Below, one piece after another: positions 4,664 to 25,635 of a DNA stretch of 49,237 nucleotides. The notes beneath the pieces are model-generated. The model searched no databases. It saw nothing but the letters and a program-made list of their open reading frames with translations, and was not told the DNA's origin. A program made the position numbers and the translations under genes. Source of the DNA: Bacilli bacterium (lineage in GTDB: Bacteria > Bacillota_I > Bacilli_A > RF39 > UBA660). The number at the start of each line of letters is the position of its first letter. The stretch's first letter is position 1. The DNA is taken from contig JAFTYN010000152.1 of the NCBI GenBank assembly GCA_017461465.1, positions 1 through 49,237 of the forward strand, read 5' to 3'.

Positions 4664-4695
4664 TAAAAGAAAAACCTTATTTTTAAAGGTTTTTT
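4664..4695 (-). terminator. rho-independent terminator closing the second hydrolase/lipoprotein unit
   Basis: Minus strand reads AAAACCTT-TAAAAAT-AAGGTTTT (hairpin 4671..4693) followed by TCTTTT. It lies directly after the stop at 4696. Confidence 0.55.
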
Positions 4696-5421
4696 CTATA
4701 TAGTTTGTGCTTTTTTTACTTTAATTAATACTCCTACTGCAACAATCAATATAACTACTATACCAAAAATAATTAGAATACCATTATTGCTTTCATTATT
4801 TTCTTTTTTCACTATATCATAAGCATAATAACTTGTATAATCTAATTCTGCACTTGTAATTTTATTATTATTTAATAAGTAAGTGATAGTCATACCACTA
4901 GAATTTCCATAAGAACGATAATAATATACAATTTTATTTTCCTCTTTAACATTATCCATATATCGATAACGATAATTTGTATTATCTTTAGTATCTTTAT
5001 ATAGTATTGGCCATTCATCTTTATAAATAATTGCCACTTCACTATTTGCATTAACTATTGCATACTTTCTTCCTGATTCATCTTCATTGATGAATTTTAA
5101 TTTATTATAATAAACATGATATTCATTATCCTTTAAAAATACCCCATCTGAATCTTTTTCCTCTGTATAAGATTCAGGATTAAGTAGCATATTTTTAGTA
5201 AGATTTATACTTTTTTCATTTGATTCTTCATAATTTTTCAAATCATTTATTATTTTAATACTTTCATTTGGAAGTTTAGAATAATCATAATATATATCTT
5301 GATATAATTTTATAATCACATTAGACATTTCTTCTGTTTGACTTAGTAAATCCTTATTAGAGCAACCACATACACTAAAGACTAAAATAGATATAAAAAT
5401 TAATTTTAAATATTTTTTCAT
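4696..5421 (-). CDS. lipoprotein with C-terminal TM anchor, paralogue of 6631..7260 (function unknown)
   Basis: Signal peptide MKKYLKLIFISILVFSVCGC (lipobox-like VCGC). Tyr/Asn/Lys-rich ectodomain and a C-terminal hydrophobic helix GILIIFGIVVILIVAVGVLI. Blocks shared with 6631..7260: SNVIIKLY/SNIVVNLF and FLKDNEYHVYYN/YIKNNKCYVNYN. Confidence 0.6.
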   Translation of the reverse strand: MKKYLKLIFISILVFSVCGCSNKDLLSQTEEMSNVIIKLYQDIYYDYSKLPNESIKIINDLKNYEESNEKSINLTKNMLLNPESYTEEKDSDGVFLKDNEYHVYYNKLKFINEDESGRKYAIVNANSEVAIIYKDEWPILYKDTKDNTNYRYRYMDNVKEENKIVYYYRSYGNSSGMTITYLLNNNKITSAELDYTSYYAYDIVKKENNESNNGILIIFGIVVILIVAVGVLIKVKKAQTI

Positions 5422-5430
5422 CTATTCACC

Positions 5431-6570
5431 TCATTTAGCAGTATATGCAACAGCATACATAAAACCGCATTTTCCAAGTTCATTACATCTATTTTTGTGA
5501 TTATAAAATTTATTCCATAAATTTTCTAAAGTGTATGTTCCATTATTACTACCATTACCTGGATCAAGTAAAACAACTTCACCATTAGTTGCTGGGGTAA
5601 AAACAACGTAATGTCCTGGTATTAAAACCTCTATTGCTTTATTAGCTTTTAATGCATCTCTTATTTTAGTTAATTTTGCATCTTTTGATAATCCAGAACC
5701 ACGATAAAATAATACTTGAGCATTCATATCATATTTATTTAGCATATTTTGATTATATAAAGCAGCATCTTCAATTGCTCCCTTATTTGGTGATATTCCA
5801 GGATGAATATAAGCATGAACTGTTTTTGGATTAATATTACCATCATTATTTAAACCACTTGCTATCATAGCTAACGATGAATATCCACATCCAGATGAAC
5901 ATATAGTACTAGAACTACTACCAAATTTAACGCTTTTCCATCTTGAATCACACTGATTATAATATGGTAAATTAAGGGTATTACTTACTGAACCACTACT
6001 ACTACCTGATTTAACTCCACCACCATCATCTCTTTGTTTTCTTTTTGCTTCTTCTTCTTTTTTCTTTTCTTCTTCTTTACGTTTTTCTTCTTCTTTTATT
6101 TTTTTATCTACTTCTTTTAATCTAGTAGTAAATGTTTCTTTTAATTCCTCATCTTTTACTTTATTTACAGCAAGTTTTGCATCATCGTATATTAATCGTG
6201 ATAAATTTTGTTCTGCATTTACTACTAAACTATCTGCAATATTAATATATGCAGCGTCTACATATTCAGAATTAGCATTTTCAAAACAAGCTGCATATTC
6301 ATAATTTGAATCAGCTATTCCTATTACAAAATCTAAAATATATGGAACTAAAAAGATCAAGATTAAGCCTATAAATTTTTGAGGTATTCTTCTTACATTT
6401 TTACTTACTGCAGATTGATCTTGTGCCATAACTGCCTTAGCAATATCAATAGTTGTCATAATTATTACTGCTATTGGACCAATTATACATAATAATTTAA
6501 TTATTAATCTTACTATAACCATAACAGAAAGTATATCTGGATTATTACATGCTGCTATTACTAAACTCAT
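5431..6570 (-). CDS. membrane-hairpin-anchored C39-like (papain-fold) cysteine peptidase, probable cell-wall hydrolase
   Basis: N-terminus MSLVIAACNNPD, two TM helices around a basic loop (SKNVRRIPQKF), a Lys/Glu coiled-coil spacer and a G/S linker. These are followed by PYYNQ...SSGCGYSSLAMI (Cys), PGHYVVF (His) and LLDPG (Asp), as in Peptidase_C39_2-type domains. AGGAG lies 9 nt upstream of the ATG, and an in-frame TGA 2 codons upstream prevents extension. Confidence 0.6.
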   Translation of the reverse strand: MSLVIAACNNPDILSVMVIVRLIIKLLCIIGPIAVIIMTTIDIAKAVMAQDQSAVSKNVRRIPQKFIGLILIFLVPYILDFVIGIADSNYEYAACFENANSEYVDAAYINIADSLVVNAEQNLSRLIYDDAKLAVNKVKDEELKETFTTRLKEVDKKIKEEEKRKEEEKKKEEEAKRKQRDDGGGVKSGSSSGSVSNTLNLPYYNQCDSRWKSVKFGSSSSTICSSGCGYSSLAMIASGLNNDGNINPKTVHAYIHPGISPNKGAIEDAALYNQNMLNKYDMNAQVLFYRGSGLSKDAKLTKIRDALKANKAIEVLIPGHYVVFTPATNGEVVLLDPGNGSNNGTYTLENLWNKFYNHKNRCNELGKCGFMYAVAYTAK

Positions 6571-6588
6571 ACATCATCACTCCTATTT

Positions 6589-6599
6589 TAATTATATCA
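6589..6599 (-). promoter_or_regulatory. extended -10 promoter element (TGATATAATTA) for 5431..6570 unit
   Basis: Minus strand reads TGATATAATTA about 20 nt upstream of the AGGAG RBS. The identical 11-mer occurs upstream of 7262..8545, ftsK and murD. Confidence 0.45.
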
Positions 6600-6601
6600 A
6601 A

Positions 6602-6636
6602 TAAAAAAAGAATAACAAAGATAAACTTTGTTATTC
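6602..6636 (-). terminator. rho-independent terminator after lipoprotein 6631..7260, overlapping its stop
   Basis: Perfect 11-bp stem GAATAACAAAG/CTTTGTTATTC (6610..6636) followed on the minus strand by TTTTTTT. Confidence 0.65.
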
Positions 6637-7260
6637 ACTAGTTATATAATTATTTATATTTTCAAAACTTGTTTCTATTTTCTCTATATCTTTACCATCT
6701 AGATACATTTTAACAACTAATCCAGTTCCATCATATGAAGAGTTATATAAGAAATAATATCCTTTATCAAACTTTACACTTTGTTTATATACATAATCAT
6801 ATTTAGGATTATCCTTATTTTCTTCATAATTCATATAAAAATCACTTTCGTATAAGATAGTATAATAATTATTACAAACTAAATATTTTTGTAGTTCTAA
6901 TTCGTAAGAAGGGTCATTTTCTTCTTTTATATAATCAAACCCTAAATCATTATAATTTACATAGCATTTATTATTTTTAATATATACTTCTTTAGAATTA
7001 GGTTCATTAACTTTATATTCATCATTCTTAATAATAAAATCAGTTAAATCTATCTCATGATTTTTATGAGTTAATGTATTTAAGTATTCATCTATTTTCT
7101 TTTTATCTTTTTCATCTATATCTTTAGAATCATATTTTTCACTAGTAAATAGATTAACTACAATATTAGATATATTTTTATAGTATTCAAAATTCTTATT
7201 TGTACATCCAGTTAGTAAGACTAATCCTAATAACATTAATATAGTTAATTTCTTTTTCAT
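6631..7260 (-). CDS. lipoprotein, paralogue of 4696..5421 (function unknown)
   Basis: Signal peptide MKKKLTILMLLGLVLLTGC with the canonical lipobox LLTGC. It starts 1 nt after the stop of the M23 gene. The Tyr/Asn/Asp-rich ectodomain shares blocks with 4696..5421. Confidence 0.65.
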   Translation of the reverse strand: MKKKLTILMLLGLVLLTGCTNKNFEYYKNISNIVVNLFTSEKYDSKDIDEKDKKKIDEYLNTLTHKNHEIDLTDFIIKNDEYKVNEPNSKEVYIKNNKCYVNYNDLGFDYIKEENDPSYELELQKYLVCNNYYTILYESDFYMNYEENKDNPKYDYVYKQSVKFDKGYYFLYNSSYDGTGLVVKMYLDGKDIEKIETSFENINNYITSE

Positions 7261-7261
7261 C

Positions 7262-8545
7262 TTATCCTCCTGCCTTTATTTTATATCCTTTAGCATGTTT
7301 AGGCATTCCGTATATAGCTTCTATTTTCCAAGTTGTTAAGCCAGAATTATAATTACTACCTGGATATATAGTCATATGAAGGTGTGGTGCCCAACCAATA
7401 CTTGTACTAGTACCTGCTGCATTACCAACAAATCCAAGTAATTCACCTTTTTTTACTTTACGATTACAAGATGAAGTACTACTACACCTATATCTTATAC
7501 CAGACATATGTGTTAAAAAGATTGTATCTACTGACTGACCTTGTACAGTTTGAGCTTTATTTAATTTTATAGATACACTATAAGCTGTTTCATCTCCACC
7601 TTTATTACTTGTATGTCCCCACTCAGAATACATTAAAGTACCATCTACTGGTGAATATATTGGAGTTCCAAAATAGGCCATAAAATCTATACCATTATGC
7701 TCATAAACAAAATTATAAACTCCATCTACCGGTGTGGTTGGCATTATAAAAATACCATATGTTTTATAATTAGTAAGTTGTGTTGGAATAGAACCATAAT
7801 TTTTAGGCCATGCTCCTAATGGAAGACCAGTTTTAGAATCTTTTGGATAAACAAAATTACTAGCGCTTATTACTTTTCTTCCGGCCCAGTAATTAACTGC
7901 TGCTGAAGGATCAGGCTCTCTAGATTGTGCTACACCTGGCTGAGCTATTCCTTTTCCACTACTAGAATATGAACCAGATGTCGATAAATTGCCAGTTCCT
8001 GATACATTAGAACCATCATTTTTATTTTGTTCTTGTTCAGCTTTCTTTTTTGCTTCTTCCTCTTCTTTTTTCTTCTTTATTGTTTCTTTTACAACATCTA
8101 TTCTTTCATTATAATTAGCTTGTTTTTCTTCATCTTTAAGCTTATTAATTGCAAGTTTAGCTTCTTCTACATCTAAATAGTTAAGTGATTCTTCTGCTTT
8201 TAAAACAGCATTATCCGCTTTTGTCAAATATGCCTGGGCAATATTTTCTTTTGTAGCTCCTACAAAACATGAATTATATTCATAAGAAGAATCAACTATA
8301 TTCATAACTACCTGAATAAAAGTTGGGACAAAAAATATTAATACCATGGCAATCATTTTCTTTGGTATTTTTGCTTTTTCCTTAGCAACCATATTTTCAT
8401 CATTGGCAATTACCGTCTTGACTAAACTAATCATCATAGCAATTATTAGCGCTATTGGCGCAACAATTTTTAATACATTAATCATTTGATTTACTAAATA
8501 CATAACAGATAGTAAATCAGGATTGCTACATACTGTTAATAACAT
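7262..8545 (-). CDS. membrane-hairpin-anchored M23 (LytM-type) metallopeptidase, probable peptidoglycan endopeptidase
   Basis: M23 motifs are HNGIDF (HxxxD), THMSGI...KKGELLGFVGN and APHLHMTIY (HxH). The N-terminal Cys, two-TM hairpin and K/E coiled coil are paralogous to 5431..6570. The ORF track starts at TTG 8590. I prefer ATG 8545 (MLLTVCSNPD) because GGAGG lies 7 nt upstream and the N-terminus then matches its paralogue. Confidence 0.75.
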   Translation of the reverse strand: MLLTVCSNPDLLSVMYLVNQMINVLKIVAPIALIIAMMISLVKTVIANDENMVAKEKAKIPKKMIAMVLIFFVPTFIQVVMNIVDSSYEYNSCFVGATKENIAQAYLTKADNAVLKAEESLNYLDVEEAKLAINKLKDEEKQANYNERIDVVKETIKKKKEEEEAKKKAEQEQNKNDGSNVSGTGNLSTSGSYSSSGKGIAQPGVAQSREPDPSAAVNYWAGRKVISASNFVYPKDSKTGLPLGAWPKNYGSIPTQLTNYKTYGIFIMPTTPVDGVYNFVYEHNGIDFMAYFGTPIYSPVDGTLMYSEWGHTSNKGGDETAYSVSIKLNKAQTVQGQSVDTIFLTHMSGIRYRCSSTSSCNRKVKKGELLGFVGNAAGTSTSIGWAPHLHMTIYPGSNYNSGLTTWKIEAIYGMPKHAKGYKIKAGG

Positions 8546-8565
8546 AACTATACCTCCTACCATAC

Positions 8566-8576
8566 TAATTATATCA
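8566..8576 (-). promoter_or_regulatory. extended -10 promoter element (TGATATAATTA) for 7262..8545 unit
   Basis: Minus strand reads TTTTGATATAATTAGTATGGTAGGAGG. It lies just downstream of the ftsK terminator. Confidence 0.45.
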
Positions 8577-8593
8577 AAATAAGATGTCAAAGC

Positions 8594-8620
8594 AAATAAA
8601 AAAGGAAGTTAATCTTCCTT
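8594..8620 (-). terminator. rho-independent terminator of ftsK, overlapping its stop codon
   Basis: Minus strand reads AAGGAAG-ATTAA-CTTCCTT followed by TTTTTTATTT. The TAA stop of ftsK lies in the loop. Confidence 0.55.
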
Positions 8621-10804
8621 TTGTAATTCTACTAATACTTCTCTTGGTTTTGAGCCATTTTGAGGTCCTACAATACCTCTTTCTTCTAATTTATCAACTA
8701 AATTTGCAGCTCTATTATAACCTATTCTAAATCTTCTTTGAATAAGTGAAGTACTTGCTTTTTTACTAGTAACGACAAATTCAACTACTTGATCATATAA
8801 AGGATCTTCACCTGGATCATAGTCATGACCTTCATTATCTACCATAGTAGTAGCATTCATTTCTTCAGGATCCATAGTTAATGTTTCATCATATCTAGCC
8901 TTCTGCTGTTTTATAGTATAATTTACTACATTTTTAATTTCATCATCAGATACAAAAGTACCTTGAATACGTATTGGTGTATTTTCTCCTTGTGGAAGGA
9001 ATAACATATCACCTTTACCTAGAAGTTTTTCTGCTCCAACTGAATCTAAAATAGTTCTAGAATCGATACCACTAGATACCGCAAAAGCTATTCTAGATGG
9101 AATATTAGCTTTAACTACACCAGTAATTACATCTGTAGATGGTCTTTGTGTTGCTACAATTAAATGGATACCTGCAGCACGTGCCATTTGTGTAATTCTC
9201 ATAATAGAATCTTGAACTTCTTTAGCAGCTACTAACATTAAATCTGCAAGTTCATCAATAATAATTACTATAAAAGGTAATTTATTTAATTTTTCACCTT
9301 CTGGTAATTTCTCATTTTGTTTATCTATATAAGTATTATATCCTGCTATATTCTTAGTTTTACTATTTTCAAATAAATCATATCTTCTTTCCATTTCAGT
9401 AACCATTTTTTTAAGAGCTATATTAGCTTTTCTAGGATCAGTTACTACTGGAGCAAGTAAATGAGGAACTCCGTTATACATAGAAAGTTCTACTTTCTTA
9501 GGATCTACTAATACTAATTTTACTTCATCAGGTCTAGTTCGCATTAAGATAGAAACTATAATACTATTAATACATACTGATTTACCACTACCAGTTGAAC
9601 CAGCTACTAAAAGGTGTGGAGTTTTATTAATTTCACAGTACTGAGGATTTCCCATGATATCTCTACCTAATGTAACAGCAAGTTTACTTTCTTTCATACT
9701 ACTTGGAATACGTTCTAAAACTTCTCTTACACTAACCATAGTATTTTTCTTGTTAGGTAATTCAATACCAACTGTACTCTTACCTGGAATTGGTGCTTGA
9801 ATACGAACTTCTTTTGCTGCTAAAGCTAAAGCAAGTTCTCTATTTATAGCAAGAATTCTATTTAATTTAGTACCTGTTTTAACCTCAAGTTCATACTGCG
9901 TTACAGAAGGTCCAACATGAGCAGCTACTACTTTACTTTCAATTTCAAATTCTTTAAGAACATTTTCTATTAATGGCGCTGTTGTTTTTACAGCATCATT
10001 ATTTTCATTACTATTAGATTTAGCAGGTTTATTTAAAAGTGTTATTGGAGGATAATAATAAACTTTGCTTATTTCCTCTTCTTCTTTTACTTCACCTGTT
10101 TCAGGATCAACTACTATTTCTTTTTCTTCTTTCTTTTCGCCATATTTAGTTAGTTCTTCCATGCTTGTGATAACTACTTTATCATCTGCTTCATAATCAT
10201 CTTCTGCTTTAGTAATAGCAATTCTATCACTTTCTTTAACTTTACCTTTAATTTTTATTTTAGCTTTAATACCTGTAACAATATCTTTTATAGATAATCC
10301 AGTAAATAGAATTATACCCGCAACTACTAAAATCCAGCTTATTACAGTAGCACCTTCTTTTGCAAATAAAGCTATTGATATAGCACAAAAGATAGCACCT
10401 AATATACCACCACCATTTAAATTAATAGTATCTGGTGATTCAAAATATGCACATAAATTATCAAATGTTTTTGTAATCATTTCAAAACCTTTAAATTCAG
10501 CATAATCTAAATGACTTAATACTAATACTGCTAAAATAAGTATATATAAACCTATTAATTTAGAAGTAAAAAACTTTGGCTTTTCTCCCTTTACAACCAT
10601 ATATATACCAATTATAGCTACTAATATATAAAATATAGCATACCACTGTCCAACTAAAAAAGCTCCAATTCCTTTAACAAAGTCTCCAACTGGACCAAAT
10701 TTAGCAAGTCCAATTAAAGCAACTAATATAACTATAAATCCCTTTAATTCATAACTTACAGGACTAGTCTCTTTTTCAGCTTTTCTTTTCTTTTTCTTTG
10801 CCAT
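8609..10804 (-). CDS. ftsK: DNA translocase FtsK/SpoIIIE
   Basis: N-terminal polytopic membrane domain and an acidic linker. Walker A GSTGSGKSV and Walker B IIIDELADL. C-terminal winged-helix gamma domain (SLIQRRFRIGYNRAANLVDKLEERGIVGP). Confidence 0.9.
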   Translation of the reverse strand: MAKKKKRKAEKETSPVSYELKGFIVILVALIGLAKFGPVGDFVKGIGAFLVGQWYAIFYILVAIIGIYMVVKGEKPKFFTSKLIGLYILILAVLVLSHLDYAEFKGFEMITKTFDNLCAYFESPDTINLNGGGILGAIFCAISIALFAKEGATVISWILVVAGIILFTGLSIKDIVTGIKAKIKIKGKVKESDRIAITKAEDDYEADDKVVITSMEELTKYGEKKEEKEIVVDPETGEVKEEEEISKVYYYPPITLLNKPAKSNSNENNDAVKTTAPLIENVLKEFEIESKVVAAHVGPSVTQYELEVKTGTKLNRILAINRELALALAAKEVRIQAPIPGKSTVGIELPNKKNTMVSVREVLERIPSSMKESKLAVTLGRDIMGNPQYCEINKTPHLLVAGSTGSGKSVCINSIIVSILMRTRPDEVKLVLVDPKKVELSMYNGVPHLLAPVVTDPRKANIALKKMVTEMERRYDLFENSKTKNIAGYNTYIDKQNEKLPEGEKLNKLPFIVIIIDELADLMLVAAKEVQDSIMRITQMARAAGIHLIVATQRPSTDVITGVVKANIPSRIAFAVSSGIDSRTILDSVGAEKLLGKGDMLFLPQGENTPIRIQGTFVSDDEIKNVVNYTIKQQKARYDETLTMDPEEMNATTMVDNEGHDYDPGEDPLYDQVVEFVVTSKKASTSLIQRRFRIGYNRAANLVDKLEERGIVGPQNGSKPREVLVELQKED

Positions 10805-10852: not shown

Positions 10853-10880
10853 ATAAAAGAAAAAATGCTAAAAAGCATTT
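10853..10880 (-). terminator. rho-independent terminator after pilin gene 10880..11281
   Basis: Minus strand reads AATGCT-TTTT-AGCATT followed by TTTTTCTTTT, directly after the stop. Confidence 0.5.
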
Positions 10881-11281
10881 TAATTCGAGCATATAGTATT
10901 GCAATCTTCTTTAAATTCAATTGGACTTCTAGATATATCAAAATTAGTAGTTAACTCTTCTTCATTAATTTCTTCTACACTTCTTACTCCATCACTAAGT
11001 TCATATAAAACAATATCTTCACCAATTAATTTCCAGTAGCCAGTAAATTTAGTACCTTTAATTTCTAAATTATCAATACAACCACATGAACGATTATATT
11101 CTATAACTTCTATCGTTCTAATATTTTTTACTAATGTTTTAACATTATCCCTAAATAAATTATCTTTAGCTTCATTAGTTATACGAGTATAAATTGGCAT
11201 TACAATACTACCAATTATCCCAAGAACAATTACAGCTGCTAGAAGTTCCATAAGTGTAAAACCTTTATTTTTTCTATTCAT
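10880..11281 (-). CDS. prepilin-type (type IV pilin/pseudopilin-like) protein
   Basis: MNRKNKG|FTLMELLAAVIVLGIIGSIV is a class III signal with Glu+5. Small 133-aa protein with 4 Cys in the globular part (CGC...C..IC). Confidence 0.75.
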   Translation of the reverse strand: MNRKNKGFTLMELLAAVIVLGIIGSIVMPIYTRITNEAKDNLFRDNVKTLVKNIRTIEVIEYNRSCGCIDNLEIKGTKFTGYWKLIGEDIVLYELSDGVRSVEEINEEELTTNFDISRSPIEFKEDCNTICSN

Positions 11282-11354: not shown

Positions 11355-12227
11355 TTACTTTACTCTTCCTACTAATTTAATAATTTTACCATGTTCATCA
11401 AGTGGTCTATTATCATATCTCACTTGTTCTTTTAAGCACCATCTAGAATATTCATAACGGCTTTCTTTGAAATCATGGGCATATCCTTTTCTAAAACATT
11501 TATGATATCTTTTCCAATCATCAACTTTACCATCAGTATATTCATGTTTAACATAACCAAGTTTACCTAAACGTCCCCAAACTTCATCCTTAGCGCTTTC
11601 TTCTGCAAGTAACATAGCAAGATTAATATCATCTTTATATTTTTTCTTATAAAATTCTAAATATTTAGCATATAAAGTTCTAAATGGATTAAGAACATCC
11701 TTTTCATAATTTTCATAATCAACATAATACACTAATTCATTCATGTAATAAATATCATCACTTAATACTATCTTTTCTATTTTAGTTACTGGTACTCTTA
11801 ATTTTTTAAGTTTATATTTTAATAATTCAGAAGTACTTTTTTCCTTACCAGATATAGCACTTTCTTCACCTGGAAGTGTTATAAGTTCATATTTATTTCT
11901 AATAGCTATAGAATCCGCTATTGAAGTATAATACCCACCATTTTCTATACCGTTTATAGAAGGATTAGGAATATATGTATCTATTTTTCTTCCTGGTCTA
12001 GCTATATATTTTTTAGCTAAATTTGTATATTTTTCATATGGTGAGTTTTTAGTAACTATCATTGAAATAATATTAGCACTTCTATTATGCGAATCTTTTA
12101 TTCCATTTAATAAAGTACTATCATATAAATGCAAACTTTTTGGCACAAATAATGAAATATGTTTTAAATCATCTGCCATACTATCATATTGTTTTAATAT
12201 ATCATTTTTTATTTCTACAGGTAACAT
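11355..12227 (-). CDS. hypothetical cytoplasmic protein (290 aa)
   Basis: Long ORF with RBS AAGGGGGA and a canonical promoter upstream. No TM segment and no motif I can recognise. Confidence 0.5.
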   Translation of the reverse strand: MLPVEIKNDILKQYDSMADDLKHISLFVPKSLHLYDSTLLNGIKDSHNRSANIISMIVTKNSPYEKYTNLAKKYIARPGRKIDTYIPNPSINGIENGGYYTSIADSIAIRNKYELITLPGEESAISGKEKSTSELLKYKLKKLRVPVTKIEKIVLSDDIYYMNELVYYVDYENYEKDVLNPFRTLYAKYLEFYKKKYKDDINLAMLLAEESAKDEVWGRLGKLGYVKHEYTDGKVDDWKRYHKCFRKGYAHDFKESRYEYSRWCLKEQVRYDNRPLDEHGKIIKLVGRVK

Positions 12228-12250
12228 AATAATCCCCCTTACCTGCAGAT

Positions 12251-12278
12251 ATTATACTTTTTTTTATTTATTTGTCAA
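12251..12278 (-). promoter_or_regulatory. sigma-A type promoter for 11355..12227
   Basis: Minus strand reads TTGACA-16 nt-TATAAT (TTGACAAATAAATAAAAAAAAGTATAAT). Confidence 0.55.
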
Positions 12279-12294
12279 TCTAAAAGAGATATGA

Positions 12295-12951
12295 TTATTC
12301 ATATCTCTTTGCTTTTACTTGTTTTTTTTCTGGAAGTTTATCATCATATTTTTGTCTTAATGTATATAATTCAGTTAAATTTTGATATGTCTCATAATCT
12401 ACAACACCATAAGCATCTACTATTGTAGCTAAATCCTTACTAATCTTTTTAACTTCATGATGCACTAAAGAACCCATAGGTGCATATAATAAACTTCTTT
12501 TCTTCTGAGCATATTTTTCTATATATTCTCCTAAAGCATTATTTAGTTTTTGCTGTCTTCTTAAAGCTTCCTTCCAAACTTCCATATTACCTTCATTGTT
12601 ACTTAAATGTTTTTTTAATAATCTGTCATTAAAATTTAAAACATCACCAATTAGTATTTTTCTTGGTCCAAAAGTAGCTTTTTGATAAATTCTTTCTACC
12701 GTATAATTATCATATTCACTACCTTTTTGTCTTGAAAATAATCCAATATAATCGTCACCATAATCAGAAGTTGATTCCCAAACTCCTATTTCTAGTTCCT
12801 GTGTTCTATTTTTTTCTTTAGACTCATATTCAGCTTTATAAATATGCGACCCACCTTCATGCTCTAGAAATAATGCTATAGCATCACTAATACTACCACC
12901 AAAATATTCTTCAACTAACGAAATTATTTTTTCCTCTTTATTCTGTCTCAT
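12295..12951 (-). CDS. hypothetical cytoplasmic protein (218 aa)
   Basis: Long ORF with no TM segment and no recognisable motif. An 11-bp perfect hairpin (12284..12309) overlaps its stop. Confidence 0.5.
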   Translation of the reverse strand: MRQNKEEKIISLVEEYFGGSISDAIALFLEHEGGSHIYKAEYESKEKNRTQELEIGVWESTSDYGDDYIGLFSRQKGSEYDNYTVERIYQKATFGPRKILIGDVLNFNDRLLKKHLSNNEGNMEVWKEALRRQQKLNNALGEYIEKYAQKKRSLLYAPMGSLVHHEVKKISKDLATIVDAYGVVDYETYQNLTELYTLRQKYDDKLPEKKQVKAKRYE

Positions 12952-15033: not shown

Positions 15034-18000
15034 TTATCTAGTTAAGGTTATTGATGCAGCGTTTCCTGTTGGGAATGTTCCTGCAGCATATGTATTCCCA
15101 TCACTGCCTGTAAATGCATAAGATGTAATGTTTGACATAGAGACAGTTGAAGGTATATTTTTAGGAGTTTTAATTGTTTTTAGATTCGTTGTACCATTAA
15201 ACATAGATGACATATAATCTAAATTAGAACTTAATGACCATGAACTTAAATCTAGTGATGTTAAACTAGTAATTCCATAGAACATAGATGAAAGAGTTGT
15301 CACCTTTTCTACGTTCCATCCTGATACATTTATATTAGATATTTTCGAATTATAAAACATATAGGACATACTTGTTACATTCGCTGTATTAAAATGTCTT
15401 AAATCTAATGAAGCTACATTTGTAGTATCAAACATAGATGACATACTTGTAACTTTACCCGTATTCCATCCTGACACATTTATTGTTGTGGCTTTTGCGG
15501 TTTCAAACATAGCTGACATACTTGTTACATTCGCTGTATTAAAATGACTTAAATCTAATGTTGCTACATTCGTGCCGTAAAACATATACGACATGTTTGT
15601 AACTTTCCCTGTGTTCCATCCTGATGTATTTATTGCGGTAGCTTTAGAACCATAAAACATATATGACATATTAGTTACATTTGATACATCGAGAGATGAT
15701 AAATTTAATGTCGTAGCAGCAGTAGCGCGAAACATATATGACATATTTGTTACTTTTGAGGTATTCCATCCTGAAACATTTATTGTTGTGGCTTTTGAAC
15801 TATAAAACATCGAATTCATACTTGTAACATTTGCTGTATTGAAATGACTTAAATCTAATGTTGCTACATTCGTGCCGTAAAACATAGACGACATACTTGT
15901 AACTTTTCCTGTGTTCCATCCTGATGTATTTATTGCGGTAGCTTTAGAATTATAGAACATACATGACATATTAGTTACATTTGATGTATTAAAATGAGAC
16001 AAATCTAGTGTTGTCGCAGCAGTATCACTAAACATATATGACATATTTGTTACCTGACTAGTATCCCATCCTGACACATTTATTGTTGGAGCTTTCATGT
16101 TATAAAACATATACGACATATTAGTCACATTTGAAGTATTCCATGTCGATAAATCTAAACTTTCTACTGCTTCTAAATATTCAAACATACCACTCATATT
16201 AGTAACCCTATGTGTATTAAAATGACTTAGATTTAAGTTTAGTAAAACATTATTACCATCATCCATATAATATCTATCAGCACGTCTCATTGAAAACATA
16301 TAGCTCATATCAGTTACATTTGATGTATCCCATCCGTTTAAATTTATTGATGACAAATTATAATTATAATGAAACATCGAAGACATATCTTTAACTTTTT
16401 CAGTATCAAAGGAACTCAAATCAAGTGATTCAATATAACATAGTCCCTCAAACATATGACTCATATCTTCTACATTAGCTGTATCCCATCCTGAAAAATC
16501 AATTTCAGCGATATCTGAACAATAATATGTTTGTGATGGGCGAAAAACAAGATTTTCAATACTATTATTCTTATTTAATCCATCTAAAATACTAGGTGTT
16601 AATTTTTTTGTATCACTCTTTAAATAGTCATCATATGCATATGATGAATCATGTCCAGCAAACATATATGACATATCTACAACATTTGAAGTATCAAAAG
16701 AACTAAGATCTAACGTTCCTAATGAGCACATTCCTTCAAACATATGGCTCATATTTTGAACACTAGATGTATCCCAATTAGTTAAATCTAAATTTGTTAT
16801 ATTAGAGCAATTAAATACTGAAGCATCGTCTCCTATAACAACCAACTGTTCAATATTGTTTTTATCATTAAAATTATTTAAATAATTTATTTTAAAATCA
16901 TCCAATATATTAGCACTAATAGGATCTACATCTTCTTCATCATAACCAGCAAACATATATGACATATTTACAACATCTGAAGTATCATAATTTTCAAAAT
17001 TTACTGTATATAAGTTATCTAAACGATAAAACCAGTATGAAGAATCTATATTGGCTTTTATTGTACCATTACTTCCAATATACATATTGTAATATCCTGC
17101 ATTAGATGCACTTTCTATAATCCAACCTTTTATAGAATTATCTTTGGCTTCTGATAAATCCCAAGTTGCTACTGCATTTGCAGGAATATCAACATTATCT
17201 ATAAAGGAAATAGAAGTAATATTAGGTGCATATGAAGAACTTCTAAAACCACCCGATAAAAGTCCTGCTGAATAAGTTTCTAAATAAGAATATTTAGAAA
17301 CTAAAGTAATTTTTCTGTTTTTAGAAACTGAATTGCCACTTTTATCAGTTGCTATATAAGTAATGATATATTCACCTGGTCTATTATAATTAATAGTACC
17401 ACTAGTCTTAATTGTAGGAGCTACCCCACTATTATCTGTAGCAGTAACTCCTTCCATTAGATTTAAAGTTTCTCCTATTCCTATTTCTAAATCTTCAGGA
17501 ACATTTAGTTCTGGTGCTGTTGTATCTACTACATATACTTTTCTTGTTAATGTTTTTGATATACCATTTTCAATAATTGTATATTTAGCATGATAATCTT
17601 TTCCTAATACTTTTAAATTAACATTGTTTGATTTTACTATACTAGAACTCATATCTTCACCAGCTGAACTTTTTGCAGTTGCACCTGGATCAAATGAAGC
17701 ATAAGTTAAAGTACTATCATTTGTTATTTCTATTTTTTGAGGATTATCTCCTAACAAGTATATTGATGGTGTTTTAGATACTGCTTCACAATCTTTTAAA
17801 TTACCATCTATAAGCTCTTCATCTAAAAAAGTATATTCATATGTATCTTTTTCATTATCTTTTACTCTTGTTATTTTAAACTGCATTGTATTTGCTAAAC
17901 AAGTACTTGTTTTAGGATTTTTTATTTCATATTCGATATAACCTTGCTCTTTTAAATCTGCTAAAGTTACTATTATTTCTTCGCCATCTTCATATATTAG

Positions 18001-18186
18001 TTCTTTATTATCTGTAACCCAGTTTCTTAATCCATCTTTTAATGTATCTTTTGTTCTATTATAAGCATTATTCTTTGTTTTAGTTATAATATAGTCTACT
18101 GATGGAATTGCTATTAATGCTATTAAACCTATTAATATTACTACTCCTATTAACTCTACAAGTGTAAAACCTTTTCTACTTTTCAT
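15034..18186 (-). CDS. modular giant pilin: prepilin N-terminus + pilin module + two Ig-like (DUF5011-type) domains + ~20 DUF285/BspA-type leucine-rich repeats
   Basis: MKSRKG|FTLVELIGVVILIGLIALI. Residues 1 to about 133 align with the 134-aa pilin encoded upstream, including both Cys. Next come LLGDNP...DPGATAKSSAGEDMS and TTAPEL...VTATDNSG...GEYIITYIATDKSGN (Ig-like). About 20 repeats of the form (D/N)TxxV(T/V)xMSxMF follow. Confidence 0.8.
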   Translation of the reverse strand: MKSRKGFTLVELIGVVILIGLIALIAIPSVDYIITKTKNNAYNRTKDTLKDGLRNWVTDNKELIYEDGEEIIVTLADLKEQGYIEYEIKNPKTSTCLANTMQFKITRVKDNEKDTYEYTFLDEELIDGNLKDCEAVSKTPSIYLLGDNPQKIEITNDSTLTYASFDPGATAKSSAGEDMSSSIVKSNNVNLKVLGKDYHAKYTIIENGISKTLTRKVYVVDTTAPELNVPEDLEIGIGETLNLMEGVTATDNSGVAPTIKTSGTINYNRPGEYIITYIATDKSGNSVSKNRKITLVSKYSYLETYSAGLLSGGFRSSSYAPNITSISFIDNVDIPANAVATWDLSEAKDNSIKGWIIESASNAGYYNMYIGSNGTIKANIDSSYWFYRLDNLYTVNFENYDTSDVVNMSYMFAGYDEEDVDPISANILDDFKINYLNNFNDKNNIEQLVVIGDDASVFNCSNITNLDLTNWDTSSVQNMSHMFEGMCSLGTLDLSSFDTSNVVDMSYMFAGHDSSYAYDDYLKSDTKKLTPSILDGLNKNNSIENLVFRPSQTYYCSDIAEIDFSGWDTANVEDMSHMFEGLCYIESLDLSSFDTEKVKDMSSMFHYNYNLSSINLNGWDTSNVTDMSYMFSMRRADRYYMDDGNNVLLNLNLSHFNTHRVTNMSGMFEYLEAVESLDLSTWNTSNVTNMSYMFYNMKAPTINVSGWDTSQVTNMSYMFSDTAATTLDLSHFNTSNVTNMSCMFYNSKATAINTSGWNTGKVTSMSSMFYGTNVATLDLSHFNTANVTSMNSMFYSSKATTINVSGWNTSKVTNMSYMFRATAATTLNLSSLDVSNVTNMSYMFYGSKATAINTSGWNTGKVTNMSYMFYGTNVATLDLSHFNTANVTSMSAMFETAKATTINVSGWNTGKVTSMSSMFDTTNVASLDLRHFNTANVTSMSYMFYNSKISNINVSGWNVEKVTTLSSMFYGITSLTSLDLSSWSLSSNLDYMSSMFNGTTNLKTIKTPKNIPSTVSMSNITSYAFTGSDGNTYAAGTFPTGNAASITLTR
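15190..17010 (-). repeat. coding tandem-repeat array (DUF285/BspA LRR units, ~69-75 nt) with a near-identical 300-bp higher-order repeat at 15481..15780 / 15781..16080
   Basis: Lines 15481-15780 and 15781-16080 align at an offset of exactly 300 nt. One shared run of 43 identical nt is ATGACTTAAATCTAATGTTGCTACATTCGTGCCGTAAAACATA. Confidence 0.85.
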
Positions 18187-18580
18187 ATTCTACCTCACAA
18201 CTTTCTGTAAATCTTATATTATTTTCATCTTGAAATTTATAAGTATAATTATTATTTTTTCTAGTAATAACTATTACTGTATCATTAGAAATGCACATTT
18301 CATTAATTGGATTAATAACATCTACTTCTATAAATCCACCTAGTTTTAAATCTCCTAAAGTTATATATACATAATCGCCATCTACGGTAGGAAGCTCCAT
18401 CATATTAGATGCTCCATAATCTTTAGCAGCACTTAATATTACCTCTTTTTGATTTTCATAACCTTTTTCTCTAGTTGACTTAATAACTGCATCTATAGTT
18501 GGTATTGTTATGAGCGCTAAAACACCAATTAGTGTTATGACTGCTAAAATTTCTACTAAAGTAAATCCTCTATTTCTCAT
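18176..18580 (-). CDS. prepilin-type (type IV pilin-like) protein, first gene of pilin operon
   Basis: MRNRG|FTLVEILAVITLIGVLALITIP with two Cys (EMCISN...ESCE) typical of a pilin D-region. It overlaps the next gene by 11 nt. Confidence 0.8.
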   Translation of the reverse strand: MRNRGFTLVEILAVITLIGVLALITIPTIDAVIKSTREKGYENQKEVILSAAKDYGASNMMELPTVDGDYVYITLGDLKLGGFIEVDVINPINEMCISNDTVIVITRKNNNYTYKFQDENNIRFTESCEVEYEK

Positions 18581-19886: not shown

Positions 19887-21140
19887 CTAAAAGTTAAGCA
19901 TTATCCATTCTGGTTTAAATATTAATAGTAAGCCTATAATAATCATTATTATACCGCCAACTAAATGTGCAAATTTACTATATTTTGTAGTAACACCACT
20001 TATCTTTAAAGTTAACATTGCTATTATAAATATAGCTAAATCATCTATCAAGAAAAATAATATATATATTAAAATATATCCTATTTTCATTAATCCATCT
20101 ATATTATTTAATTCTAGTATTGTAATAAAGATAGTTGGAAAGCCAGCTGAGCAAGCAAGTTCTACTAAGTTAACACTAGCTGCTAAAGCTATTATACCAA
20201 TTAGAGCTATAAGTAGGTTTTGCTCTGCTGTCAAAGCTTTTATTTTTGTAAAATACTTCTTTCTTTTCTTTTCATCAACCACATGGCATCCATCTTCTTT
20301 GGCTGTTAAATAACTTCTTAAGTTAAGAACGCCTCCTATAATGGCAACTAAAGCAATTATTCTTCTTACCCATGTTATAGCTGCAAAACTAAGTACTACT
20401 GATAATCCTAACATTGCTAAGAAATAAACAAATGCTGATGTTACTAAGAATGTTGTTCCTAAAAGCCACATTTTCTTTCTATTTTTCATATTAAATAACA
20501 TATTAATTAGAAATAATAAAATCCAAAGTGCACATGGGTTAAAACCATCTATAAATCCTAATATAATAGCAATTAATGGTATTGATGCTTCTTTAGCATC
20601 TATTTTTCCCAATAAAGGAATATCATATTCTGTATTTTCTTTTTTCTTTGTTTCTTCTTTTTCTTCTAACTTAGGTTCTTCATCTATTTCTTCTTTTGGT
20701 TCTTCTAAAGCTGGTGTTTCTACTTCAGTATTATCATTATAATAACTATCTAAAGTTGCTTTCATTCTTGAACCAATAGAAGCCATGTATCCATTAAAAA
20801 ATTCATCACCTATAACAGTAAAAGGCACTCCAGTAGAAGTAGAGCCCATTCTATCTTTGGCAATTTTCATATAATCATAATTAGTACCAGAAGATACTTC
20901 GTAACTTCTAATAACTAAGTTCGGATAATCTTTTTTGATACTTTCTAAAAACTTTTTTTCTGCTTTACAGTGAGAACAAGTATCACTATGAAAAAAATAT
21001 ATAGTTACAGTTTCACTTTTCTTTTCTCCAACAATATCATAGATTTTATCTTCAAACTGCTTAGCATTTACTAATTGAGGAAATATTAAAAATGATATTA
21101 CTAATAAAAATGTTAATAAATATTTCTTTAATTTATTCAT
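19887..21140 (-). CDS. secreted thioredoxin/glutaredoxin-fold domain (CSHC) fused to a CcdA/DsbD-like polytopic membrane domain
   Basis: Signal peptide ending in VNA. The Trx-like fold shows FFHSDTCSHCKAEKKF and a cis-Pro GVPFTVIG. A Glu/Lys linker leads to about 6 TM helices with membrane-embedded Cys in GFNPCALWILLF and ELACSAGFP. Confidence 0.55.
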   Translation of the reverse strand: MNKLKKYLLTFLLVISFLIFPQLVNAKQFEDKIYDIVGEKKSETVTIYFFHSDTCSHCKAEKKFLESIKKDYPNLVIRSYEVSSGTNYDYMKIAKDRMGSTSTGVPFTVIGDEFFNGYMASIGSRMKATLDSYYNDNTEVETPALEEPKEEIDEEPKLEEKEETKKKENTEYDIPLLGKIDAKEASIPLIAIILGFIDGFNPCALWILLFLINMLFNMKNRKKMWLLGTTFLVTSAFVYFLAMLGLSVVLSFAAITWVRRIIALVAIIGGVLNLRSYLTAKEDGCHVVDEKKRKKYFTKIKALTAEQNLLIALIGIIALAASVNLVELACSAGFPTIFITILELNNIDGLMKIGYILIYILFFLIDDLAIFIIAMLTLKISGVTTKYSKFAHLVGGIIMIIIGLLLIFKPEWIMLNF

Positions 21141-23204: not shown

Positions 23205-23603
23205 TTAGTATATACCACATGTTCCGGTTGATGAACCAGATATTTCAAATAATGAAAGTACAAAGTTAAGTAATGATGGTACTAGGAATAATAGACCTAT
23301 TGCTATTAATCTAGTAACAAATCTTTTATTAGCTTTAGCCATACTATCATCATTAGAACCAAATATAGCTTTTACATAATCTGCTATTTGAAGAATTACC
23401 GCTAAAGCAATACCTGCTATTCTAATATAATCTAAAATAGTTTGTAATAGTTCTTTTAATTCTCCACCATCTACAATTTCGCATCCTTCTTTAGCAACTA
23501 ATTCTACTTTTGTTTCAATTTCTACTGCTAAAGCAGGCTCTACCAAAATAAATATTAATAATCCAATAAATAAAATATTATACCATTTAAAAAACTTCTT
23601 CAT
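23205..23603 (-). CDS. secreted protein consisting of signal peptide + Cys-flanked two-helix membrane hairpin, C-terminus GTCGIY (unknown family; VirB2/TrbC-like topology)
   Basis: Preferred start MKKFFKW at 23603 (TAATG overlap with the upstream stop). Signal peptide ends ...EPALA. The segment EGCEIV...ELLQTILDYIRIAGIALAVILQIADYVKAIFGSNDDSMAKANKRFVTRLIAIGLLFLVPSLLNFVLSLF...GTCGIY is roughly 80% identical at DNA level (by eye) to the 3' end of 24073..25179. Confidence 0.6.
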   Translation of the reverse strand: MKKFFKWYNILFIGLLIFILVEPALAVEIETKVELVAKEGCEIVDGGELKELLQTILDYIRIAGIALAVILQIADYVKAIFGSNDDSMAKANKRFVTRLIAIGLLFLVPSLLNFVLSLFEISGSSTGTCGIY

Positions 23604-23995
23604 TAAAAACCACACTCTAAATTTACTTTCATTTCATAATCATCCTCTGTATAAGGATTTTGTGGATATATTATAACATAAGTTTCGTTATAATTACATT
23701 GTTTTTTAGTTTGATTATTAACAAATTCTTTTGGATCTTCATAATAAATAGCGGAAATAAGTTCTGATAAACCAACTTTCATTCCGTCCTCTGTATAACT
23801 ACCTAACTCATCTACATTATTAACAGTAGGTAAATATACTTTTTGATAATATGTTGCACCTAATACACCAAGTTTATTTTTTAATCTTTCCTCTTGATTA
23901 TCATGCTCAATACTTTTTCTAGCTATACCAAGAACCATAGTTGCTGCAAGCATTATAGCAAATATAATTATAGGTTTCTTAAAATCAGTCTGCAT
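23603..23995 (-). CDS. bitopic membrane protein ending in ECGF, paralogue of 25182..25601 (function unknown)
   Basis: Preferred start MQTDFKK at 23995 (AGGAGG lies 8 nt upstream; the ORF-track start at 24013 is TTG). One TM helix, then a domain with two conserved Cys (KKQCNY...LECGF). Confidence 0.6.
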   Translation of the reverse strand: MQTDFKKPIIIFAIMLAATMVLGIARKSIEHDNQEERLKNKLGVLGATYYQKVYLPTVNNVDELGSYTEDGMKVGLSELISAIYYEDPKEFVNNQTKKQCNYNETYVIIYPQNPYTEDDYEMKVNLECGF

Positions 23996-24045
23996 ATATA
24001 ATTCCTCCTGCAATATAAGTATAATATATTTTTAAAAGAAAAGCA

Positions 24046-24074
24046 AAGAAAAAACCAAAGTTAAACTTTGGTTT
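24046..24074 (-). terminator. rho-independent terminator after 24073..25179, overlapping its stop
   Basis: Minus strand reads AAACCAAAG-TTTAA-CTTTGGTTT followed by TTTTCTTT. Confidence 0.6.
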
Positions 24075-25179
24075 AAAAAATTCCACATGTTCCAGCTTCG
24101 GCAGCATCTAAGATATTAAATAATGAAAGTACAAAGTTTAATATTGAAGGTATTAAAAATAATATTCCTATTGCTATTAATCTAGTTGAAAAACGTTTAT
24201 TTGCTTTAGCCATTCCATCATCTGATGAACCAAATATCGCCTTTATATAGTCCGCTATTTGAAGAATTACAGCAAGGGATATACCAGCTATTCTAATATA
24301 ATCTAAAATAGTTTGCAATAATTCAGTAAGTTCTGAAGATAATAAAGCACACCCCTCTTTAGCTTCCATATCTACATCAACACTTATATTAACGCCATCT
24401 GATTTAGTACCCCCACCACTTTTTTTATCTTCTTCTGTTTGTGGTTTATTTTGTTCTTCTAAAGTTTCTGCATCTGGCGTTTCAGAACCAACTACTGTTG
24501 TACTCATTCCACCTTGAGAAGTTTTAGAAATACCACATGTAGGTGTTCCACCTCTTTCAGTACAATTCAAATGAAGCGAAGGACAACTTAATTTACCATT
24601 TGAACCTACAAAGTCACTTGCTTTAATTTCACTACTACCTACTTGATATTTACTAGTTAATTCTGATTCTAGTGTTTTACCATCAGTATGGAAGGTCACC
24701 TTTCCACCATAACTACAGCTTATTCTTTCTGTTTTTGGTTCATCTTCTTTAACTTCAGTTAATGGTTTATTATTGTTCGTTGAATCACTAGTCAAAGCTA
24801 TTTTTGATGCTCCTGACTGACTAGTAAATGTTAAAGAATATGTTGCTGATCTACCACTCGAAGATGTTATTTTTTGATATAAAGTGCTAGGACAAGATAG
24901 TTTATTTGTTGACTTATTAATAAAGTTAGCTGATGTTATATTGTCCATATTATTTGTTACTGAACCACCTGCTATATTTTGAGTTGGGACACATGACTTT
25001 TTTAAATCAGCTGTACCTGTTCCAGTTGCTTCTAGAGAAAAAGTGCATTTAAAAAGCCCAACATTATAAACACACGTAGCACATGAATATTTATTGCAGT
25101 CACCTGCATTAGCTACATCAATATTAACAAAAAATGCTAAAAATAATAAAAATAATAAAAACTTAAAATTCCTTTTCAT
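24073..25179 (-). CDS. secreted Cys-rich protein with C-terminal Cys-flanked two-helix membrane hairpin, C-terminus GTCGIF
   Basis: Preferred start MKRNFKF at 25179. Signal peptide ends ...VANA. The roughly 270-aa Cys/Ser/Thr-rich ectodomain carries an internal duplication (ITSANFINKSTNKLSCPS / IKASDFVGSNGKLSCPS). An acidic linker is followed by the same hairpin module as 23205..23603. Confidence 0.6.
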   Translation of the reverse strand: MKRNFKFLLFLLFLAFFVNIDVANAGDCNKYSCATCVYNVGLFKCTFSLEATGTGTADLKKSCVPTQNIAGGSVTNNMDNITSANFINKSTNKLSCPSTLYQKITSSSGRSATYSLTFTSQSGASKIALTSDSTNNNKPLTEVKEDEPKTERISCSYGGKVTFHTDGKTLESELTSKYQVGSSEIKASDFVGSNGKLSCPSLHLNCTERGGTPTCGISKTSQGGMSTTVVGSETPDAETLEEQNKPQTEEDKKSGGGTKSDGVNISVDVDMEAKEGCALLSSELTELLQTILDYIRIAGISLAVILQIADYIKAIFGSSDDGMAKANKRFSTRLIAIGILFLIPSILNFVLSLFNILDAAEAGTCGIF

Positions 25180-25181
25180 AA

Positions 25182-25601: not shown

Positions 25602-25625
25602 ACTTATTACTCCTATTCTAAAAAC

Positions 25626-25634: not shown

Positions 25635-25635
25635 T

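Follow-up and report, generated by a model that had tools for sequence, protein, structure and literature searches.

Tandem candidate wall peptidases on a pilin-like hairpin anchor, each paired with a lipoprotein, downstream of ftsK in an uncultured Bacilli bacterium

Introduction

Membrane-anchored, multi-domain cell wall hydrolases are standard in the type IV secretion systems (T4SSs) of Gram-positive bacteria (PMC12857230), and the VirB1-like enzymes PrgK of pCF10, TraG of pIP501, CwlT of ICEBs1, TcpG, and Orf14 of Tn916 form the named Gram-positive set with which we compare the locus described here. That locus lies in a stretch of 49,237 nucleotides (the window) from an uncultured, low-GC Bacilli bacterium of the gut (GenBank assembly GCA_017461465.1, contig JAFTYN010000152.1, positions 1 to 49,237). 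It consists of two tandem gene pairs, or cassettes, downstream of ftsK, each encoding a candidate peptidoglycan hydrolase followed by a lipoprotein, and both hydrolases carry an N-terminal two-helix hairpin related to VirB2-like pilins. VirB2-like proteins of the Pfam family PF18895, and their arrays, have been described in Patescibacteria, and the monoderm or Gram-positive MPF_FATA systems are said to be without VirB2 homologues (PMC12102498).

We found neither the lipoprotein family encoded here nor any fusion of a wall hydrolase to a pilin-type hairpin described in the literature. To our knowledge, the control of potentially lethal wall hydrolases in monoderms is known for few model systems, namely FtsEX–PcsB/CwlO, IseA, and LytM regulators. 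The locus shows another design, apparently widespread, in which a pilin-derived hairpin, a stalk, an interchangeable enzymatic head, and a coupled lipoprotein are combined. The reading that we favor, with slightly better than even confidence, is that these are housekeeping, membrane-tethered peptidoglycan peptidases on a co-opted pilin-like anchor, each with a dedicated lipoprotein partner.

Results

Two hydrolase–lipoprotein gene pairs follow ftsK

The window has a G+C content of ~26%, and its minus strand holds nearly all genes. After ftsK come the two pairs and then parE and parC, all on that strand. An earlier note on this DNA, made from the sequence alone, had described two self-contained tandem units at this place, and all four open reading frames (ORFs) are confirmed, with the following coordinates.

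10804-8609, minus strand: ftsK, full-length, with four-transmembrane (4TM), alpha, motor, and gamma domains
8545-7262, minus strand: cassette 1 hydrolase, 427 aa, M23 head
7260-6631, minus strand: lipoprotein 1, 209 aa, lipobox LLTGC; start 1 nt past the M23 stop
6570-5431, minus strand: cassette 2 hydrolase, 379 aa, C39_2 head
5421-4696, minus strand: lipoprotein 2, 241 aa, lipobox VCGC, C-terminal transmembrane (TM) helix and basic tail; start 9 nt past the C39_2 stop

The gaps of 1 and 9 nt agree with the 1–10 nt given before, and each hydrolase gene is translationally coupled to its lipoprotein gene. The M23 gene probably starts at ATG 8545, because a ribosome-binding site (AGGAGG) lies 7 nt upstream and the N termini of orthologues begin M-x-L-S-V-C; on the same grounds, we rejected TTG 8590 as the start.

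The N-terminal anchor is a VirB2-like hairpin on a helical stalk

The two hydrolases are 43% identical from residue 1 to ~150 (E 4e-40), with no similarity further on. The common N-terminal Cys hairpin, spacer, and Gly/Ser linker that had been seen by eye are real, and both Cys, two Pro, and one loop Lys are invariant in the shared hairpin module. The parts of the two proteins up to the catalytic heads are as follows.

8246..8545, minus strand: cassette 1 hydrolase, residues 1-100; Cys6, two TM helices, Cys93; hairpin like that of VirB2/T4SS pilins
7931..8245, minus strand: cassette 1 hydrolase, residues ~101-205; conserved helical stalk, Lys/Glu-rich helix, Gly/Ser-rich linker
6265..6570, minus strand: cassette 2 hydrolase, residues 1-102; Cys8, two TM helices, Cys95; helices at 11-48 and 52-85 in the AlphaFold2 (AF2) model
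5977..6264, minus strand: cassette 2 hydrolase, residues ~103-198; helical stalk, Lys/Glu helix, disordered Gly/Ser linker

The stalk has the consensus NAT.E.I..AY..A..V..AE...DY..A..A..K..D. In the AF2 model of the cassette 2 enzyme it is helical over residues 92-182, with a predicted local distance difference test score (pLDDT) of 83-92, and pLDDT is below 50 at 176-185.

The same Cys–helix–loop–helix–Cys module ends two other proteins of the window (23615-23205 and 25194-24073), which match the Pfam family T4SS_pilin, PF18895; the former passes the family cutoff (27.3 versus 26.6). PF18895 matches neither hydrolase, and their NCBIfam matches fall below threshold (Mbov_0396, 19.5 bits against a cutoff of 70; MMCAP2_0566, 16.4 against 90; both are membrane protein families of mycoplasma integrative and conjugative elements). 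With a profile built from the four window hairpins, we searched 1.84 billion representative proteins (50% identity clusters) exhaustively. The hairpin family so defined comprises 9,216 representatives at E ≤ 1e-3 and 1,794 at E ≤ 1e-10, in two architectures: one with an N-terminal hairpin and 200-340 residues behind it, and one with a signal peptide, a variable ectodomain, and the hairpin at the C terminus. The hairpins of the two architectures are homologous (hhalign 99.5%, E 8.5e-23), and a hidden Markov model made from N-terminal hairpins alone recovers the pilin-like ORFs of the window at 1e-16 and 5e-14. Half of the scanned C-terminal-hairpin proteins (25/50) have a PF18895 match and no other domain. 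One member of the family, P0165, is a stand-alone hairpin protein of 153 aa with a signal peptide, encoded by the first gene of a true T4SS cluster (L021).

Because of its homology to PF18895-matching hairpins and the place of P0165 in a T4SS cluster, we identify the Cys hairpin as a VirB2-like pilin module. In the hydrolases it is better called pilin-derived than a pilin, since they score below the curated pilin thresholds and have no T4SS context; P0165 is small and stands alone as pilins do, and the hydrolases are fusions of 379-427 aa without a signal peptide. Other searches with these sequences returned little. Word-indexed protein searches with the N-terminal module (N-module) alone or with a 30-sequence profile gave near-identical fragments only, tblastn of the N-module against plasmid and phage collections gave no match, and a PDB sequence search with the hairpin profile gave chance matches only.

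Over 30 N-modules, the net charge averages -1.5 in the N-terminal tail, +2.0 in the loop (4.0 Lys/Arg), and -2.5 after the second TM helix. From these charges, and from the signal peptides of the C-terminal-hairpin homologues, we infer that the ends of the hairpin are outside and its loop inside. This would place the stalk and heads outside the cytoplasm and both invariant Cys together on the outer face, where a disulfide between them probably staples the hairpin. The exposed Cys pairs of the hairpin proteins could be influenced in their redox state by a 417-aa protein encoded elsewhere in the window (19887-21140, minus strand). This protein has a signal peptide, the thioredoxin-like motif CSHC, and several TM segments in its C-terminal half; by eye it resembles DsbD/CcdA, and no Pfam family matches it at E ≤ 1e-3.

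The catalytic heads belong to different peptidase families

Beyond the linker, the two enzymes had been read as ending in different hydrolase folds, M23 and C39-like papain, and Pfam matches and conserved motifs uphold that reading.

7262..7930, minus strand: cassette 1 hydrolase, residues ~206-427 and stop; conserved pre-domain (EPDPSAAVNYW, GAWPKNY) and M23 metallopeptidase head
5431..5976, minus strand: cassette 2 hydrolase, residues ~199-379 and stop; C39_2-type papain-like cysteine peptidase head

The M23 head matches PF01551 over residues 282-396 (38.3 bits against a cutoff of 28.7, E 1.6e-9). Its motifs HNGID, THMS, and HLH are invariant in 10 M23 orthologues and align to the M23 chains 9gy1 and 6jn7 of the PDB; its zinc-ligand and catalytic residues are intact. 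It is probably a cross-bridge or stem-peptide endopeptidase. An exact-sequence lookup of this protein gave no match, and a PHROGs search gave generic M23 matches only. The head encoded at 7262-7930 and its orthologues share several features: a conserved pre-domain of ~80 residues (SEPDPSAAINYW, GAWPKNY), an insertion of ~30 residues in the M23 domain (YSEWGHT.N.GGDET), a conserved Cys pair (RC...CN), and an invariant C-terminal AGG.

The cassette 2 head matches Peptidase_C39_2 (PF13529) over profile positions 1-142 of 143, by a narrow margin (25.7 bits against a cutoff of 24). Gln206, Cys228, and His320 are invariant in 10 C39-type homologues, and the Asp of LLDPG is Asp or Asn in all nine that cover the position, the tenth row being truncated. 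The catalytic core is kept in homologues of both enzymes; its loss was one of the outcomes that the earlier note had named as refuting. In a Foldseek search, the AF2 model (pLDDT 80.2) matches C39/deubiquitinase papain folds (8adc, 6mpz, and 3erv; probability 1.0, E 5e-3 to 2e-2) as well as entries for the ComA peptidase domain (5xe9, 3k8u, and 5xe8); all listed PDB matches have a probability of 0.99-1.0, with E only 5e-3 to 6e-2. Both enzymes are ordinary members of the M23 and C39_2 families.

Among 38 N-terminal-hairpin proteins, the heads are NlpC/P60 in nine, C39_2 and CHAP in seven each (best C39_2 match, E 3.7e-10), and M23 in five; VanY, phage lysozyme, Amidase_5, and a few esterase-type domains occur once each. 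At least eight hydrolase types occur as heads behind an N-terminal hairpin. We infer by analogy that the C39_2 head also cuts peptidoglycan, because NlpC/P60 stands at the orthologous position in relatives (below) and other heads of the family are wall hydrolases. Gram-positive phage lysins, too, have Peptidase_C39_2 listed as one of their catalytic domains (PMC8223927).

In relatives, the pair is retained and the head differs

Related loci came from metagenomes and from metagenome-assembled genomes (MAGs) labelled Bacillota or Bacilli bacterium, with pattern scans of genomes and of metagenomes giving four loci each; many of the representative proteins lie on contigs of 2-5 kb, which limits the gene context that can be seen. 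The order ftsK, M23 gene, lipoprotein 1, NlpC/P60 gene, lipoprotein 2 (with its C-terminal TM helix), parE occurs, whole or in part, in eight loci (L001, L005, L007, L008, L009, L014, L015, and L016), of which L008, L015, and L016 are short or truncated and display it only in part. The NlpC/P60 enzyme in second position is itself hairpin-anchored. L024, from a closer relative, has the C39_2 version as in the window, and the cassette position between ftsK and parE is conserved in nine loci. A more distant clade (L010 and L017) has a single M23 and partner pair after glmS, in L010 before a glmM-type gene, and L012 retains the M23 and lipoprotein pair with a partner of 30% identity. Comparison of synteny, as had been suggested, shows the pairing of hydrolase and lipoprotein to persist where the cassette has another location (L010 and L012), and the hydrolase–lipoprotein gene gaps of 0-9 nt are conserved. 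The proteins of the cassettes are 31-61% identical to those of relatives, versus 78% for FtsK and 88% for ParE.

The lipoproteins had been described as diverged paralogues, and they are (27% identity, E 3e-14). In the lipobox of lipoprotein 1, G18 and C19 are invariant in 10 sequences; that of lipoprotein 2 is atypical at -2 and is kept as CGC or SGC in orthologues. Orthologues of lipoprotein 1 occupy the same genomic position with 45-78% identity. The lipoproteins behind the NlpC/P60 genes are orthologues of lipoprotein 2, to which they are 31-34% identical, versus 26-27% to lipoprotein 1. Thus, between syntenic loci of sister lineages, the head of the second cassette differs, NlpC/P60 in one and C39_2 in the other, and the lipoprotein stays orthologous. 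M23 and C39 heads are also scattered over a neighbor-joining tree of N-modules (150 residues, low resolution), and in one protein, P0025, the anchor that carries a C39 head is 63% identical to an NlpC/P60-bearing one. The enzyme head has been swapped repeatedly on the same anchor. The proposal that a cassette was duplicated and its enzymatic domain then exchanged is supported as far as it sees the two units as paralogues that carry unlike heads on one type of anchor. The C39-headed member in L018 is followed by a lipoprotein of another family, and a hairpin member with an S9/esterase head has no partner gene.

The AF2 model of lipoprotein 1 (pLDDT 75.6) has two helices and an antiparallel sheet. 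A Foldseek search of this model against the PDB found nothing significant, the best matches being NTF2- or cystatin-like (E 0.3 or worse, TM-score <0.2); we treat an NTF2/VirB8-like or cystatin-like fold as a lead only. The lipoproteins have no Pfam or NCBIfam family, a PDB sequence search with their profile gave chance matches only, and neither in sequence nor in fold do they resemble IseA, NlpI, EnvC/NlpD, ActS, or VirB8/NTF2-like proteins. The lipoprotein 1 orthologue in L010 (9284-9901, from a goat-rectum Bacilli MAG, 45% identity) has no Cys in its lipobox; an uncleaved signal anchor seems to hold it instead, so that lipid modification would not be essential to the role of the partner.

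The first assignment offered for the lipoprotein was that of a cognate inhibitor or immunity factor. On this account, hydrolase and lipoprotein are a toxin/immunity or enzyme/inhibitor pair, in which the lipoprotein occludes the active site of a potentially self-lytic or antagonistic enzyme. The layout of a constant N-module, a swappable head, and a small downstream gene is that of polymorphic toxins, the translational coupling is tight, and the cassettes diverge fast (31-61% identity versus 78-88% for FtsK and ParE). The partner does not co-vary with the head, however. In the window, the partners of a metallopeptidase and of a cysteine peptidase are paralogues, the orthologue of lipoprotein 2 persists across the change between NlpC/P60 and C39_2, and, conversely, C39 heads occur with two unrelated partner families. 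Moreover, the producer keeps the enzyme anchored in its own membrane, nothing for export or delivery is encoded nearby, the locus occupies a fixed place in the core genome and is no variable island, and the fold search of the lipoprotein has no significant match. We consider an inhibitor or immunity role improbable.

The window contains no T4SS genes

The VirB2-like hairpin raises the possibility that the cassettes work within a T4SS-like or pilus apparatus that is dispersed or has degenerated. The VirB2-like/VirB1-like fusion would then open the wall for a pilin array, for the neighboring Com-type pseudopilus, or for DNA or protein transfer, and the lipoprotein would be the counterpart of the one behind the VirB1-like hydrolase in true T4SS clusters. 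Several observations favor this possibility. The stand-alone hairpin protein P0165 heads the T4SS cluster in L021; the lipoprotein of that cluster has the architecture of lipoprotein 2 and shows homology (28% identity, E 5e-7) to the lipoprotein paired with the C39-headed hydrolase in L018; and the window itself contains three pseudopilin genes and two more that are pilin-like (23205-25194). Against it, no T4SS gene (VirB4, VirD4, or VirB6), relaxase, or mobile-element gene was found in the 49 kb of the window, nor any T4SS gene in the contexts seen of N-terminal-hairpin hydrolases, four independent ones, all of them housekeeping. Synteny is stable even though FtsK is only 78% identical across genomes, and hhalign of the lipoprotein family of the window with the T4SS-type lipoprotein aligned the signal peptide and nothing else. 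FtsK has the alpha, beta, and gamma domains, which rules it out as a T4SS coupling protein. On balance, an apparatus of this kind seems unlikely, although of the alternatives we weighed it is the one to take most seriously.

A mobile-element origin of the locus was also considered and rejected: composition is uniform, neither integrase nor relaxase was found in the window, and synteny is conserved. A pair of ORFs of 290 and 218 aa without family match (11355-12951, minus strand), between murD and a pseudopilin gene, is absent from L001, L005, L007, and L009, where murD is followed directly by the pseudopilin gene and ftsK, and is therefore a lineage-specific insertion.

The T4SS cluster in L021 (10001-20462 of that locus; MAG GCA_044432745.1, contig JAWXUH010000007.1) is a complete one of monoderm type. 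Its genes encode, in order, the hairpin protein P0165, a VirB6-like protein of Mbov_0396/MMCAP2_0566 type, a VirB3-like protein, a split VirB4, a hydrolase with lysozyme and M23 domains, a lipoprotein with a C-terminal TM helix, and VirD4; the N terminus of the VirB6-like protein is itself weakly like the hairpin.

The further pilin-like genes of the window belong to a second tandem duplication of a two-gene unit (23205-25664, minus strand). In each copy, the gene for a small TM protein with ECGF at its C terminus (25664-25182 and its paralogue 24013-23603; 34% identity, E 2e-29) overlaps by 13 nt the gene for a secreted protein ending in a pilin-like Cys–hairpin–Cys module (25194-24073, 373 aa, with an ectodomain rich in Cys and Ser/Thr; 23615-23205, 136 aa; hairpins 71% identical). 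The flanking genes are housekeeping (metallophosphoesterase and cysteine desulfurase), with no T4SS genes. The layout resembles the VirB2 arrays of Patescibacteria, which are interleaved with non-pilin genes (PMC12102498). Housekeeping genes also surround three scattered pseudopilin genes of prepilin (N_methyl) type (10880-11281, 15034-18186, and 18176-18580, minus strand). The product of one has 1050 aa, Ig-like domains, and seven DUF285 repeats. The scattering is conserved in L001, L005, and L009.

Promoter-like sites are generic, and terminators differ in strength

Candidate transcription signals, all on the minus strand, are as follows; the two promoter-like sites are consensus matches only.

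8600..8622, minus strand: ftsK intrinsic terminator, between ftsK and cassette 1; 9-bp stem, -9.0 kcal/mol, z -3.9, followed by a T-run
8562..8590, minus strand: cassette 1 promoter-like site; TTGACA, extended -10 TGATATAAT at 8576-8568
6610..6636, minus strand: cassette 1 intrinsic terminator; 11-bp stem, -11.9 kcal/mol, z -5.0
6591..6618, minus strand: cassette 2 promoter-like site; TTGTTA, 16-nt spacer, TATAAT with TG upstream
4664..4695, minus strand: weak terminator-like hairpin after cassette 2; -7.7 kcal/mol, z -1.3; the parE promoter is next

The -10 element that the two pairs had been said to share is present before both. It is not specific to them: TGATATAAT has nine copies in the window, some upstream of parE (4647-4639), ftsK, and murD, and we therefore rejected it as a cassette element in favor of the generic extended -10 of this genome. 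Separate terminators, also claimed before, are well formed after ftsK and cassette 1 and weak after cassette 2.

These signals bear on a third alternative, a sporulation-specific role in septal thinning or engulfment beside a SpoIIIE-type translocase, similar to that of SpoIIQ–SpoIIIAH or SpoIIP/SpoIID, which had been thought worth testing. The genes do adjoin ftsK/spoIIIE, the window has SpoIIIAH-like and GerM-like genes, and the M23 protein is membrane-anchored. Yet the promoters are of the same generic extended -10 type as those of parE, ftsK, and murD, with no distinct sigma factor signature; the M23 site appears fully catalytic and the anchor is unrelated to that of SpoIIQ; the sporulation genes are ~35 kb away; and the ftsK neighborhood is lineage-specific, differing in L010, L013, and L019, with the cassette after glmS rather than ftsK in L010 and L017. 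We find no sign specific to sporulation and judge this role very doubtful.

Downstream of the cassettes, parE ends at 2703 and parC starts at 2691 with no gene between them. A gene for a 195-aa acyltransferase stands there in L001 (14425-15012) and at the same place in L005, L007, L008, and L009.

Discussion

In the reading that we favor, two paralogous operons would each make a peptidoglycan peptidase on the outer face of the cytoplasmic membrane and a lipoprotein to go with it. The enzyme would consist of a two-helix hairpin with its Lys/Arg-rich loop inside, a helical stalk, a flexible Gly/Ser linker, and an interchangeable head. The VirB2-like hairpin would have been co-opted as a general anchor in core-genome neighborhoods devoted to the cell envelope and cell cycle (murD-ftsK-...-parEC and glmS-...-glmM). 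The lipoprotein most likely binds the anchor/stalk or the wall and not the active site, because the same family serves metallo- and cysteine-peptidase heads and an orthologue survives a head swap. It would act as an adaptor or gate, positioning or gating the enzyme in growth and cell separation. Both the physical contact between hydrolase and lipoprotein and their physiological role are hypotheses.

Several points weigh against this reading. First, its support is wholly computational and comes from uncultured organisms. Second, the only well-placed relatives of the hairpin are T4SS components; together with the two further pilin-like genes of the window, they make a link to a secretion or pilus machine elsewhere in the genome possible. 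Third, C39-type peptidases are best known for leader-peptide cleavage rather than wall hydrolysis. Fourth, the role given to the lipoprotein is a guess, as the protein has no recognizable fold or family. Finally, the N terminus is assumed to be translocated without a signal peptide.

A broader version, which we offer as a tentative suggestion, is that the VirB2-type hairpin is a universal plug-in anchor for housekeeping wall hydrolases in uncultured low-GC Bacilli, and probably in many relatives, with each enzyme run by a fold-novel lipoprotein that recognizes the anchor/stalk. If true, this would be a previously undescribed system for the control of wall hydrolases. In a more extreme form, the hairpins may oligomerize as pilins do, placing several heads in one membrane-embedded assembly. 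Two consequences are more general. The natural head swaps can be used as experiments on what the partner recognizes. Further, a T4SS pilin-like module used outside any secretion system bears on the annotation of VirB2-like proteins in monoderms and Patescibacteria, since PF18895 matches are now read as T4SS evidence.

How, then, does the locus compare with described systems? Like polymorphic toxin loci (LXG, Rhs, and contact-dependent inhibition), it combines a constant N-module, exchangeable C-terminal heads, and a small gene directly downstream; unlike them, it keeps the downstream gene when the head changes, its enzyme stays anchored in the membrane of the producer, and no delivery system accompanies it. 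As with SpoIIQ, a membrane-anchored M23 protein occurs in a spore-former, here with a SpoIIIAH-like gene in the same window. SpoIIQ, however, has a single TM helix and pairs with SpoIIIAH, which is not a lipoprotein, whereas in the window the two genes are not linked and the M23 site is fully intact.

The regulated hydrolases of division and elongation (FtsEX–PcsB/CwlO, EnvC/NlpD–amidase, NlpI–MepS, LbcA–CtpA, and IseA) share with the cassettes the concept of an enzyme of M23 or NlpC/P60 type at the membrane on a helical stalk, a dedicated partner that is often a lipoprotein, and a location near division genes. They differ in that neither the lipoproteins nor the stalk of our locus resemble theirs in sequence or fold and that an ABC transporter partner is absent.

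With the VirB1-like T4SS hydrolases, the cassette enzymes share a membrane anchor, a modular make-up, and extracellular domains drawn from M23/LytM, CHAP, NlpC/P60, and lysozyme (PMC12857230), provided that the topology proposed here is correct; in L021, the T4SS hydrolase is also followed by a lipoprotein. VirB1-like enzymes, however, belong to conjugative elements and are held by a single TM helix or a lipid, whereas the enzymes here have a pilin-like hairpin and conserved stalk, one head each, and a conserved core-genome position with no T4SS genes nearby. The anchor itself is like the VirB2-like T4SS pilins (PF18895; NCBIfam Mbov_0395 pilin-like) in being a two-TM hairpin with a basic loop and, in the proposed topology, termini outside. 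Those pilins are small, stand-alone proteins with a signal peptide; in the hydrolases, by contrast, the module has no signal peptide, is flanked by Cys, and is fused to a stalk and enzyme of 280-330 residues.

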